A DNA stretch of 64,000 bases from Octopus vulgaris (lineage: Eukaryota): NCBI GenBank assembly GCA_951406725.2, contig OX597831.1, positions 7,564,001 through 7,628,000 of the forward strand. The letters are read 5' to 3'. This document shows positions 25,736 through 37,058 of the stretch, in pieces; positions within the stretch are counted from its first letter, which is position 1; each line of letters begins with the position of its first letter. A model generated the notes under the pieces. The model saw only the letters and a program-made list of their open reading frames with translations, had not been told where the DNA came from and did no database searches. A program made the translations under genes and the position numbers.

Positions 25736-25913
25736 CGTTCATGTCAATATATACAAGGTTGGAAAAGATGAGTGCCATGCCACCCGGTGGAGGCCAGACG
25801 ATACTTTCAAACATCACAGGGAGGATAGGTTTCCGCAGACCATCAGCTAAGCTCAGTTCACGGTTGCAGAGATGAGATATGACATACTTGGGTGTAACGC
25901 AGGCCAATATAAT
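25736..25913 (-). CDS. Exon 10, TIR C-half: IILACVTPKYVISHLCNRELSLADGLRKPILPVMFESIVWPPPGGMALIFSNLVYIDMN
   Basis: Acceptor tttcgttttag, donor ACG/gttagt, 178 nt, phase 0-1. Carries Y..S..C..E and KPILPV motifs. Absent from the ORF track. Confidence 0.95.
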
Positions 25914-26189
25914 CTAAAACGAAATGAGAGAAGAAAGTTATGACAGCCACTTAAAACACACACACACACACACATATATTTGATAACAGTTTCACCTGGC
26001 ACCAAGCAACTTAGAGGTTCACAGACTCATAAAACAAACCTGTTTTGTCAGACTTGCAGTGACTGAATGAGACAACCCCAAGGTGGCTTCTAGACAGTGG
26101 GCCACGATTGGTCAATGCAGGTCACATGGTGTTAATGATATGGCAGCAACATCAATCCAATTCTTTATTCCTAGGACCACATGCAAGAC

Positions 26190-27250
26190 AGGTTACTTAT
26201 TTTGGATATTCTAAAGGGAGCACACACACACACACATAGTTTGGCTCTGTAGAGGGAGAACAGTCTGGCAAACACAAGCCATGCCATGGACAAGTCCAGG
26301 AAGGAACTGATGGAGATCTTCAAAGAATTCATCCTATCTATAATAGTCTTTAACAATTTGACAAAGGTTAACTTCCTGGACATAACCATAGACTTGAAAA
26401 TGGACAAATATTATCCATACAGGAGGCTCAACAAGGAAACAGGTTACGTCCACAAAAACTCTAAGCACCCCCCACACACTTTAATTAGAAACCTAGTCAC
26501 AGGCATAGGTAAAAGAATCACTAAATTTTCAGCAGAGTTCTTCAATGGCCCCCAACCTCAATTATAACTAGGTATTAGAAGAGTGGATTCACTGAGAAGT
26601 TAATATATGGAAGACATCCCACTCCTGCACCCAATAAGAGTCAGAAAAAGAAGATAATCTGGTTCAATCCTTCATCTAACCTAGAAGTTTCAACCAATAT
26701 AGCTAAGAGCTTCCTGATGCTTATTAACAGACATTTTTCTAACACCTATAAGTAAACATTATAAACTTTTCATCCCCCACATTAAGGTCAGTTAATCCTG
26801 CTTATACAATATTGCTTCTAACATCACACATTACAATAGACACAAGCACACACCTACACAGCCTGTAGCCTATATTCCAACCTGTAACTGTCAAAATACT
26901 ACCTACTGCCCACTGGGAGGATCTTACCTGACAAGAGTTGTGGCCCATACGGTCTTGTGCACACTATCCAATGGTATCACAAGACACTACACAACATATG
27001 AACTCCTTCAGGTGCAGGGATAGAGGCAACTGTACCTCCCTGTCCTGCTTTATCTGCAGACTTTGCAACCATCAGAAGTGTGTCCCCCAATATTGAATGG
27101 AATATCAACAGGACTCTACTTTACTCACCTGGAACTTGCAATTGCCAACTCTGCCTCAACGAGAGACTATATATTTTCCACCAACAGAAACAATTAACTA
27201 CCTCATTGTTGCCACGACAGGTAAATCTTGCTAATGCACTTCAAGCCACT
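26190..27250 (+). mobile_element. Decayed Penelope-like element (RT C-terminus, Cys linker, GIY-YIG region)
   Basis: ORF 26286..26567 (VNFLDITIDL, HPP), then KIIWFNPS, TNIAKSFL, CNCQ….CPLGG, HMNSF and C.LCLNE across broken frames. Confidence 0.85.
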
Positions 27251-27559
27251 GGCTGCTGACAATCCAAACATACTACCATAGGCCTGCCTCTTCTGTTCAC
27301 AAGGACAGAGTATGTAACCTCTGCTGCCTGTATAAACCACAGCCTCATCATCCTACAGAAACACTGTTGCCACTGCATGGCCTCTATGGTAACACACTAA
27401 CACATCAGTATACACACACACACACACACACACCATATCTGGTGAACTGGTAAAAATCATTAGCATGTCAGACAAAATGCTTAGTGACATTTCTTCTGAC
27501 TTCATGTTCCAAGTTCAAATTCTGCTGAGGCCAAATAAAAACATGCATATATCTACTAT

Positions 27560-27840
27560 TGTGTCTTTTAAAGACATTTGAGGTGAGTCCTGTATAAACC
27601 TTCTGCAAATCACTGGGCAGAGAGAGTATTGGCCTTAAAAAAGCAATGTCCTCTCTTAGTGAACAAATAACTTGGGTCTTAGTAATTTCAGGTGGGTTGT
27701 ATGAACGCAGAAGGCAGGGAGCACAAAACAATAAAAGACAACATAGGATGGACAAGTTTTAACAAATGTATTAGTTTAATGCTTAAAGAAAAAAGGGGAA
27801 GAGTCTTGACGTTTTGGACACAGGTCCCTCATCAGAAGAA
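27560..27840 (-). mobile_element. Penelope-like fragment: decayed hammerhead plus GIY-YIG-like remnant
   Basis: The minus strand reads TTCTT CTGATGA G GGAC-CTGT-GTCC AAAAC GTC AAGA. ORF 27468..27755 contains KVYTGLTSNVFKRH. Confidence 0.6.
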
Positions 27841-35216: not shown

Positions 35217-35716
35217 ATGCCCTGGTGCAGTACCAGGCAGTGGCTCTTGTGGCTTCTGATCTTAACTGATTGGAAGTGTTATCATGTACATTGTTTTGTC
35301 TTGGTATAAAAGATGGGCTACAGCAAATATTCTGCTCAATTCCACAGATTTTCTTGTCACTTGCTTGTCCTTAACCAGTTGAGCATGTCCCTTAGTGGCT
35401 GATGAGATGTGCATCTCTGATCACGACCAGAAGTAGTGGGGGAACATCATAGCCGTGTGTTGAGAGGAATTCTTTGGTGTTCGAAGAATTTTACCTCTAG
35501 AAATATGGATGTTTCATTCAATATTCAGGGACCTTCTGCAAGGTCACGCTCTGTTTATCTTGATATAAAATCACCATGTCACGCACATATGGTTGTGATG
35601 TATGTGCCTGGTGTACCCTTATCAGACGAGTAGTCATAATGGGTATCCTGGGCTTCATATATTTTACCCCAGTGTCACTTTGATGGCATGTGCTGTTCTC
35701 TCACTCAATAATAATA
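35217..35716 (+). mobile_element. Non-coding repeat embedded in (AAT)n; partial second copy at 39857-39973
   Basis: Both copies start gccctg.tgcagta.caggcagtggct directly after an (AAT)n array. This copy ends tcactcaataataata. Confidence 0.7.
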
Positions 35717-35717
35717 G

Positions 35718-36115
35718 GGCTTCCCCATAAAGAATCACCATCCTATTGAAGAAAGGGGTCAGGTATGATTGTAGAAGACAAAACAGACAAACCATGTAAG
35801 AAGACAGACTTGGCAATACCATTCGAAAGCAAAATGGATGGGAAAGAAATGGGAAAAATTGAGGAATAACAGGATCTGGCCAGAGAGAGGAGAAGATTGT
35901 GGAAGACTAAGGCAACAATTATATCTGCGGTAAATTGGTGCTGTTGGCCCAAGAGCCAAAGAACTACTTGAGAGGTTGAAGGTTATACTGGAAATGAGAC
36001 TTGCATTGTCAACCTGCAGAAATGTACCATCCTACATTCTGCAAGGATCCTAAGAACGATTCTTGAAGATTTGAGGAGACTTGTTGAAACCAAACCTCAA
36101 GATAAGATGTCTGCT
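35718..36115 (+). mobile_element. R4/Dong-like non-LTR remnant (restriction-like endonuclease end)
   Basis: MIVEDKTDKPCKKTDLAIPFESKMDGKEMGKIEE*QDLARERRRLWK…IGAVG…LQKCTILHSARILRTIL resembles PD…D.A.P.D…KE.EK..KY.DL..E..RLW…IGALG…LQK. Confidence 0.8.
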
Positions 36116-36882
36116 AACTAATATGGTGTATAACAGTTAAAACAAGAACAACAACAACAACAACAACAATAATAAAAATAATAATAATAATGATTTCTTT
36201 ATTAACCAGAATGGCTAAGAAAAAGATTGAGGACAATACAGGTTGATACAGTGAGAGATTATATAAAAACAATTGTAAACAAGGGAAATAGCAAAAAAAA
36301 AATAAATAAACAGCAGCAGCAGCAACAACAATGACAACAAAAAAAACAATAACAATCCTTTCTAATATAGGCACAAGGCCTGAAATGTGGGGGAGGGGGT
36401 TAGATGATTACATCAACCCCAGTGTTTCGCTGGTACTTAATTTATCGACCCCCAAAAGGATGAAAGGCAAAGTTGACCTCGACAGAATTTATACTCAGAA
36501 TATAAAGAGACGAAATAAATAATAATAATAATAATAATAATAACAACAACAACAATCCTTTCTACAAAAGGCACAGGACTTGAAATTTTGAGGGGAGGGG
36601 GACTAGTTGATTTCATCAACCCCAATGTTTCACTGGTACTTAATTTTATCGACCCTGAAAGGATGAACAAATGCCCTTTATATAGCAGAAGGCATTTCAT
36701 CTGCTGCTCCGGGAATACTGTCAAAGCCTTATCCAGTCGTCTCTGCCTCAAAGAATTGTTTCTAACAAAAGCTGAAGTCTTGGAATTTGGAAGAGGGGTA
36801 CGTTATAGATACTATGTCCCCCCTCCACCCCCCACCCCCAACATACACACAATTCAAAATGTCAAGTAGAAGGGTGTCTCAC

Positions 36883-37058
36883 CTTGCAATTCCGAATTCC
36901 TTGTTCGATCTTGCTGTAGAGCTGGTCACCACCACCCATCTGGCCAATGTCCATCCAACAAGAGATCCCAGCTCTTTCCAGCCTGTCCCACAGGGCCTTC
37001 ACTGCATCTTGACTGTCCCACTGGTAACTGATGAACACTTGTGGGCAGTGGGATTGTT
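36883..37058 (-). CDS. Exon 9, TIR N-half: EQSHCPQVFISYQWDSQDAVKALWDRLERAGISCWMDIGQMGGGDQLYSKIEQGIRNCK
   Basis: Acceptor tttttccag, donor AAG/gtgaga, 176 nt, phase 1-0. VFISY box 1 and G..CW.D motifs of TIR_2. Confidence 0.95.

Follow-up and report, generated by a model that had tools for sequence, protein, structure and literature searches.

A split TIR domain at the end of a Roco gene

The DNA analyzed here (hereafter the window) is a stretch of 64,000 nucleotides from Octopus vulgaris (GenBank assembly GCA_951406725.2, contig OX597831.1, positions 7,564,001 to 7,628,000 of the forward strand), and it carries on its minus strand the 3′ part of a gene encoding a Roco protein with a C-terminal TIR domain. 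A first-pass annotation made from the letters alone had proposed that positions 25736 to 37058 encode such a domain in two pieces, recognizable by three motifs, and that it keeps the catalytic glutamate of NAD+-cleaving TIRs. All three motifs are found on the minus strand, VFISYQW at 37038-37018, GISCWMD at 36969-36949 and KYVISHLCNRELSLA at 25889-25845, and the codon at 25859-25857 reads GAA. The span consists of two TIR exons and the 10,969-base intron between them, with AG/GT ends and a phase-0 join. Exon A (37058-36883) matches positions 1-52 of Pfam TIR_2 (E 1.1e-12) and exon B (25913-25736) matches positions 55-109 (E 1.2e-5). Because these are consecutive halves of the same domain, the matches are not due to chance, and the two exons do splice into one TIR_2 domain as had been proposed. 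The features of the gene are the following.

36883..37058, minus strand: TIR exon A, βA to αB, with the S, Y, D and G-D-x-L pocket positions; residues ~1032-1090
25736..25913, minus strand: TIR exon B, βC, αC with the Glu, βD, WPPPG and βE; residues 1091-1150
25857..25859, minus strand: GAA codon, Glu1109, counterpart of AbTir E208 and SARM1 E642
25869..25871, minus strand: Leu1105 before Cys, counterpart of AbTir W204 and SARM1 W638, the cyclization site
25914..36882, minus strand: phase-0 GT-AG intron within the TIR, 10,969 bases, with many microsatellites and short repeats
23284..23639, minus strand: last coding exon, with a conserved Gly/His loop, TIR αE, an unconserved linker, the CaaL tail and the TAA stop
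23287..23307, minus strand: C-terminal CGLCNVL, a CxxCaaL motif; predicted geranylgeranylation site plus a second, upstream Cys
37569..37742, minus strand: Death-domain exon 2, spliced to TIR exon A
39394..39552, minus strand: Death-domain exon 1
40614..55766, minus strand: four COR-B-region exons (55766-55609, 51590-51489, 49371-49192 and 40686-40614)
57523..60277, minus strand: two exons finishing COR-A (60277-60119 and 57652-57523)
Past the window end, up to 47.5 kb (G000:C18): ten further exons, encoding NHR, Roc and the start of COR

The joins are seen in assembled sequencing reads. Contigs from four of four runs, which we guess to be RNA runs (the joined forms in them are spliced nonetheless), run on from 36883 into the letters of exon B, and they jump 23637-25734 at CT..AC ends, into the last exon and beyond the stop codon; the join of Death-domain exon 2 to TIR exon A is reached by two of the four. 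The 21-exon model, with 11 exons inside the window and ten more within the next 47.5 kb, is open over 1267 residues, has AG/GT ends throughout and shares 1263 of its 1267 positions with protein P0088. That the domain is mis-joined or decayed might be suspected from the 11-kb length of the intron, from the ~4-5 of 46 orthologue database models that end after exon A, and from the O. vulgaris protein P0089, which has another last exon and skips one exon; the contig joins, both found in all four runs, together with the open 21-exon model led us to reject this explanation, which we regard as extremely improbable. The TIR of P0089 is identical letter for letter to that of the window, and exon A has a single match in the whole genome, as expected for a single-copy gene.

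In the encoded protein, Pfam recognizes Neuralized (NHR), Roc, COR-A, Death and TIR_2 domains, in this order, with the TIR at the C terminus; a COR-B match, seen in two relatives, is weak and lies under the Pfam cut-off. Roc is followed by COR, as in Roco proteins, and the whole gene is intact in the assembly (G000). The G1-G3 motifs of Roc are intact, with the P-loop Lys in 42 of the 42 alignment rows that have letters there, the G2 Thr in 43/44 and the G3 Asp in 46/46. The position of the G4 Asp is Asn here, as in 24/46 rows, and Asp in 15/46; since Asp and Asn thus alternate among relatives, we dropped the idea that Asn marks a xanthine-specific or dead Roc. The TIR scores 83.8 bits with TIR_2 and 17.6 bits with Pfam TIR (PF01582), below the 21.3 cut-off of the latter, and the Death domain matches those of p75NTR, NRADD and MyD88. 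A search with exon A retrieved Octopus bimaculoides LOC106875913 (P0022) at 98%, and its family extends over molluscs, annelids, nemerteans, a flatworm, a priapulid, chelicerates, echinoderms, hemichordates and amphioxus, all with orthologues; word-based searches, too shallow to show loss, gave no named match from vertebrates, insects or nematodes. The TIR is the best conserved domain of the family, with a mean identity of 69% vs. 37-53% for NHR, Roc, COR and Death. A conserved Cys/His cluster lies at the end of COR, in exons 49371-49192 and 40686-40614 (minus strand), and consists of C861, C863, C867, H870, C875, C880, H882, C889 and C897 (P0022 numbering), each kept in 44-46 of 46 rows; judging from these residues, it is likely a zinc-binding module between COR and Death.

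The account given by the first-pass annotation was incomplete, since it included neither the Roc-COR-Death context nor the tail of the protein. The last exon, covered through the stop codon in four of four runs, ends in CGLCNVL. A CaaL end is found in 41 of 46 aligned relatives, in 36 of them as CxxCaaL, and the five without it are four models that end after TIR exon A and one labelled partial; the linker preceding the tail shows only 10% identity. None of 29 TIR-less Roco paralogues, whose tails were read by eye, has a Cys four residues from the end, and a sister Death-TIR-TIR family ends in CaaX too. CaaL is a geranylgeranylation signal read by GGTase-I, and a Cys near a prenylation site is often palmitoylated. 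Because the conserved CxxCaaL tail corresponds to such a signal, the TIR is likely tethered to the membrane through a predicted lipid anchor.

Putative active-site residues and predicted assembly

In sequence alignments, Glu1109 aligns with AbTir E208 and Leu1105 with AbTir W204. Because exon B alone matched no TIR among solved structures, SARM1 was aligned through the homologue P0057, and the same columns fall at W638 and E642 of its DWVHKE segment. The glutamate therefore stands where the annotation had placed it, at the position of SARM1 E642; the motif S.WC..E, which had been attributed to SARM1, is not that of this protein, which reads DWVHKE, without Cys, in the PDB alignment. The counterparts of AbTir S140, D167, G174, D175 and L177 are identical in the octopus TIR, and those of S140, D167, G174 and L177 are kept in 241, 245, 240 and 240, respectively, of ~245 Glu-bearing animal-type domains, a set that includes unnamed records and one protist protein (P0087). 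In sequence, the octopus TIR resembles enzymatic TIRs (AbTir, BtTir, Cat1 and SARM1) more than it does MyD88.

The glutamate is present in 46 of 46 rows of our alignment of relatives (A1), in all 42 complete TIRs of orthologues and in every one of 41 αC-covering TIRs that were chosen by their COR region alone, which avoids selection on the TIR itself (truncated models dropped from the 46 relatives numbered four in the TIR counts and five in the COR-picked counts). The conservation among orthologues on which the earlier proposal depended is thus there. A wider set has the glutamate in 292 of 306 TIR domains, after removal of 34 of 340 domains that did not cover both βA and αC and of 51 of 277 proteins (two exon translations and 49 cluster members). 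Outside a "multi-TIR" group of ten proteins, set by hand and including the tunicate protein P0185, the losses fall in 7 of 57 first TIRs of tandem pairs, with none in the 57 last TIRs and none in 138 proteins with a single scored TIR. In these seven first TIRs, the BB-loop Asp and the αB Leu decay too (1/6 each), and the core K, P and W stay (7, 6 and 7 of 7), a pattern that would fit selection on the catalytic site.

Retention of the glutamate had been presented as remarkable; it is in fact usual in animal TIRs outside the TLRs. Of 19 other TIR_2 domains of the octopus genome that include αC, 16 carry it, 12 of these with the Trp as well (3 of 23 genome matches had no locus, the gene's own exon was excluded and one duplicate gene was counted once; one Glu sits on the next exon). 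Hurieva et al., in a 2026 bioRxiv preprint (10.64898/2026.04.20.719644), report that it is kept in most animal TIRs outside TLRs and IL-1Rs. The Glu alone is therefore ordinary, a common state of animal TIRs that is already in print. Elsewhere in the genome, at 22.89-23.16 Mb of G000:C3 (L014-L018, L020 and L021), lie seven single-exon TIR genes of ~700 residues each, likely TLRs, which all read WCQFE, a fuller catalytic motif than that of the Roco-TIR gene.

The residue preceding the Cys, encoded by codon 25871-25869, is Leu, which the annotation had singled out as a special substitution for the usual Trp. The site is in fact variable across the family. In 42 orthologues it is His in 17, Leu in 13, Ser in 4, Tyr in 2, Asn in 2 and one of four other residues in a single case each, with Trp or Phe in none, which led us to reject an octopus-specific loss. 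Asn occupies the site in 168 of 252 animal-type domains and W, Y or F in just 9 of them, and Tyr or Phe is found in 43 of 54 domains of the multi-TIR group, which is mostly bacterial. According to Manik et al., 12 of 12 cyclizing TIRs are aromatic at the W204 site and its mutation shifts the product to ADP-ribose (ADPR), a rule derived from bacterial and plant TIRs; with its Leu, the octopus TIR lacks this hallmark. Among 16 ADPR-only producers read by eye in Table S2 of Weagley et al. (PMC9092222), 8 are non-aromatic at the site. Since the cyclizers are aromatic there and half of these 16 ADPR-only producers are not, Leu fits hydrolysis and argues against cyclization, and by analogy the predicted product is linear ADPR rather than a cyclic signal. 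The fifth TIR of a Leptolyngbya multi-TIR protein (P0228; 32% identity over 90 residues) makes v-cADPR-x (2'cADPR) according to the same table, and this cyclizing TIR has Tyr at the Trp site. The annotation had suggested that the domain may consume NAD+ or make signals of the cyclic ADPR (cADPR) type; its sequence gives partial support to an enzyme, and a cADPR-like signal has become the less likely output.

The TIR was modeled with a predicted local distance difference test (pLDDT) score of 87, and the top Foldseek matches were RPS4, SARM1 and SPARTA. With VIA, the first match was Hydra TRR-2, which is without the Glu (Z 17.6, root-mean-square deviation (rmsd) 2.3, 123 aligned), and SARM1 (Z 16.6, rmsd 2.5, 128 aligned, 9mw2) and MyD88 (Z 16.2, rmsd 2.9, 130 aligned) were tied. 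When four copies were modeled together with NAD, the assembly scored 0.64 vs. 0.00 for the best of three controls, with runs agreeing in at least 92% of contacts and a pLDDT of at least 82. For microbes, 21 of 30 solved pairs but none of 23 single chains pass the mark used for assembly, and for eukaryotes 17 of 29 pairs (7 of 16 from animals) but none of 30 single chains do so; of seven eukaryotic pairs that lack an older solved relative, only one passed, and the calibration was ligand-free. In the predicted packing, αB/αC lies against αC/αD and the BB loop against the βE side, and contacts 47, 51 and 76 are the counterparts of the AbTir interstrand residues R178, D182 and Y207.

After βE, at 23639-23600 of the window (minus strand), the chain forms a Gly/His loop, GIGGHGSSG, in which G120, H122, G123, G126 and D130 of the folded stretch are invariant in A1. 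This loop, absent from the Death-TIR-TIR sister family, is poorly modeled (pLDDT 57) and sits close to the face by which the active site would be completed. For the oyster orthologue P0028, a model of the whole protein reached a pLDDT of 71 and a predicted template-modeling score (pTM) of 0.60.

Hydrolase, scaffold or cyclase

Taken together, we tentatively favor a reading in which the TIR is an assembly-activated NAD+ hydrolase, anchored to the membrane and gated by the GTPase module. Observed are the way the gene is built and spliced, the order of the domains, the place of the Glu and its invariance, the intact Roc G1-G3 motifs and the conserved tail; the packing is predicted, and gating, catalysis, product and biological role are what we infer from them. 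In this scheme, the NHR domain or an upstream cue would shift the nucleotide and dimer state of Roc-COR, after which Death-domain contacts and crowding at the membrane would stack the TIRs. The stacked TIRs would form a composite active site in which Glu1109 cleaves off nicotinamide and, as the W204 site holds no aromatic residue, water would attack, so that NAD+ would fall and linear ADPR would form, the output being defense or cell death.

A number of points weigh against a hydrolase. The invariance of the Glu is unspecific, since 29 other columns of A1 are invariant as well (30 of 150 in total), and its rank in the wider set is ninth among 114 columns. The comparison of tandem pairs is biased, as single TIRs without the Glu would fall below the score needed for listing; the seven losses amount to ~3-4 lineages on the tree, so that a Fisher's p of 0.013 is overstated, and the S, Y, F and G positions decay in the Glu-less first TIRs as well. 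The published AbTir variants D175A and L177A retain activity, W204A lowers or abolishes activity, and the matching change abolishes that of L6 and ROQ1, so by analogy Leu may mean a weak enzyme. The Asn at G4 may reflect relaxed nucleotide handling. The modeled fold does not separate enzyme from scaffold TIRs, and passing the assembly mark may reflect memory of solved TIR filaments. Moreover, the predicted packing is like that of AbTir and MyD88 filaments and so is common to scaffold TIRs, AbTir filaments being known to resemble those of MAL and MyD88; of the oligomerization-activated TIR that the annotation had envisaged, self-assembly is thus predicted by the model, in a geometry that is not specific to enzymes. 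Retention of the Glu predicted activity in about one case in five, since of 61 animal TIRs that bear it 12 showed activity in Escherichia coli, most of them leaving NAD+ undepleted, and TLR2, IL-1R9 and IL-1R10 were inactive despite the Glu (10.64898/2026.04.20.719644), as were the amoeba TirB/TirD. Our literature search found no measured activity for any member of the present family.

A non-enzymatic scaffold comes close behind the hydrolase and is nearly as credible to us. Here the protein would be a membrane-anchored, GTPase-controlled adaptor like MyD88, and the Glu would be retained because folding or assembly needs it. A Death domain ahead of the TIR is also the arrangement in MyD88, whose Death domain is among those matched, together with p75NTR and NRADD, and an Aplysia survey lists Roco TIR proteins, with NHR and Death domains, as MyD88-like (PMC9334734). 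The predicted type of assembly, also used by MAL and MyD88, places Glu77 of the folded stretch in a contact between copies, the TIR lacks the aromatic residue stacking on nicotinamide, and 49 of the 61 Glu-bearing animal TIRs were without measured activity, although that E. coli screen used isolated domains and did not measure every product (10.64898/2026.04.20.719644). Yet the TIR is of the TIR_2 type and under the cut-off of Pfam TIR, the 16 PDB sequences retrieved with E values up to 10 include no MyD88 TIR chain, MDIGQMGGG stands in place of the Box 2 consensus RDVLPG of MyD88, and the Glu decays only in spare TIR copies. A signal-making cyclase, which would produce a little cADPR or 2'/3'cADPR as second messenger and leave NAD+ undepleted, seems unlikely to us. 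It would be in line with the same screen, in which most active animal TIRs made canonical cADPR without NAD+ depletion, including TIRs outside the TLRs from a mollusc, an echinoderm and a lancelet, and in which Roc and COR appear among the architectures of the Fig. 3 legend (10.64898/2026.04.20.719644). The nearest tested bacterial relative, from Leptolyngbya, makes 2'cADPR, the His of 17 of 42 orthologues could conceivably stack on a base, and Tyr, Phe or Trp is found at the Trp site in a few relatives. However, W, Y or F marks all 12 cyclizing TIRs of Manik et al., with mutation leading to ADPR, as Tyr does the cyclizing Leptolyngbya TIR, and the site is Leu here and seldom aromatic among animal-type domains.

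If the hydrolase reading holds, the gene encodes a single-copy NAD+-consuming enzyme that octopus and amphioxus have in common and that brings its own GTPase control and membrane anchor. Such an enzyme would offer a clean test of a Roc-COR module with a non-kinase output, of relevance to LRRK2 and DAPK1, and the orthologues, whose residue at the Trp site is Leu, His, Tyr, Ser or Asn, would naturally test the aromatic rule of cyclization. A broader proposal, which we hold to be doubtful, is that prenylated Death-TIR proteins make up an ancient clade of bilaterians that serves animals as a second NADase system next to SARM1. In the octopus member a Roco switch would gate the growth of TIR filaments on the membrane, as an animal equivalent of the AP-GTPase-effector proteins of bacterial defense, and the cyclization Trp would have been lost clade-wide, leading to NAD+ depletion or to a product other than the known cyclic ADPRs.

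Related proteins and minor features

The domain order of this gene is that of invertebrate NHR-Roc-COR-Death-TIR Roco proteins, such as Octopus LOC106875913 and LOC115219837 (98-100% identity over the TIR exons), Saccoglossus "neuralized PATS1" and the Roco TIR proteins of Aplysia, e.g., LOC101861518 (PMC9334734). In their available parts, published accounts give the architecture only, as "MyD88-like" or as a possible GTPase TLR cascade, and leave catalytic residues and a lipid anchor unmentioned; our search, thin on subscription literature, yielded no publication about its catalysis or prenylation, and the family may already carry a name among the ecTIR-DC families. The present analysis adds the conserved CaaL tail and the product prediction, together with the architecture, which is already listed in Aplysia. 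The animal non-TLR catalytic TIRs of Hurieva et al., some in Roc-COR proteins, share the αC Glu, but the active ones mostly make cADPR, unlike the product predicted here (10.64898/2026.04.20.719644).

Among solved or assayed TIRs, the best matches are AbTir, BtTir, Cat1 and Leptolyngbya K9Q5L4 (multi-TIR-WD40). These bacterial NADases share the βA Ser, the βB Asp, the BB-loop Gly and the Glu, and modeling predicts an AbTir-like packing for the octopus TIR, but they have Trp or Tyr at the cyclization site and neither a Death domain nor a CaaL tail, and the identity of the Leptolyngbya TIRs to the octopus TIR is just ~30%. The nearest non-animal matches are proteins with 4-7 tandem TIRs (P0174, P0224, P0228, P0240, P0250, P0255, P0261, P0271 and P0277), which read S.YC..E; two that were checked have WD40 repeats and two are named as bacterial. 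SARM1 and Caenorhabditis elegans TIR-1 have the same fold (TM-score 0.70 with 6o0u), and SARM1 shares the Glu position at ~19% identity but keeps W638. SARM1 uses ARM and SAM domains, and its ARM-SAM-SAM-TIR order is not that found by Pfam here. SARM1 assemblies use the αA/αE face; the interfaces predicted for the octopus TIR name no αA residue. As for MyD88, it shares the order of Death and TIR but not its PF01582-type TIR or Box 2.

The closest paralogous TIRs (54-58% identity) are those of the Death-TIR-TIR "MyD88-like protein L1" of sea urchins, amphioxus and hemichordates, which share Death before TIR and a CaaX tail, have Asn at the Trp site, and differ by two TIRs, the lack of NHR-Roc-COR and a polybasic rather than CxxC tail. 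This sister family is large (P0003-P0021, P0137-P0171 and others, with polybasic CaaX tails), and the Glu-less first TIR of some members would make for an enzyme/pseudo-enzyme pair in one chain. Prokaryotic AP-GTPase (Roc)-COR proteins directed against invaders are built as sensor-Roc-COR-effector (Kaur et al., PMC8195603). These, LRRK2, DAPK1 and the octopus protein have in common a sensor, a Roc-COR switch and a variable C-terminal effector, the octopus protein differing by an NHR rather than LRR sensor, by the lack of a kinase and by an effector end made of Death, TIR and a predicted lipid anchor. Roc-COR-TIR with NCMLE in the protist Rigifila ramosa (P0087) and kinase-Roc-COR-TIR carrying the Glu in P0311 suggest that Roco-TIR fusions are old or recurrent.

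Two database models differ from ours. The last exon of P0089, at 14228-14106 (minus strand), would delete the CaaL tail, and one COR exon is skipped; P0022 is without one Roc exon, the exons concerned lying at 81648-81550 and 69299-69156 in extended window numbering (G000:C18). Within the TIR intron, at 26253-27259 (plus strand), lie broken frames with no Pfam match, which resemble a fragment of a Penelope-type retroelement. Pfam had no match for 22 of 24 other open reading frames of the window, and a fragment of a LINE-type endonuclease is found at 986-1462 (minus strand; Exo_endo_phos_2, E 7.9e-10).

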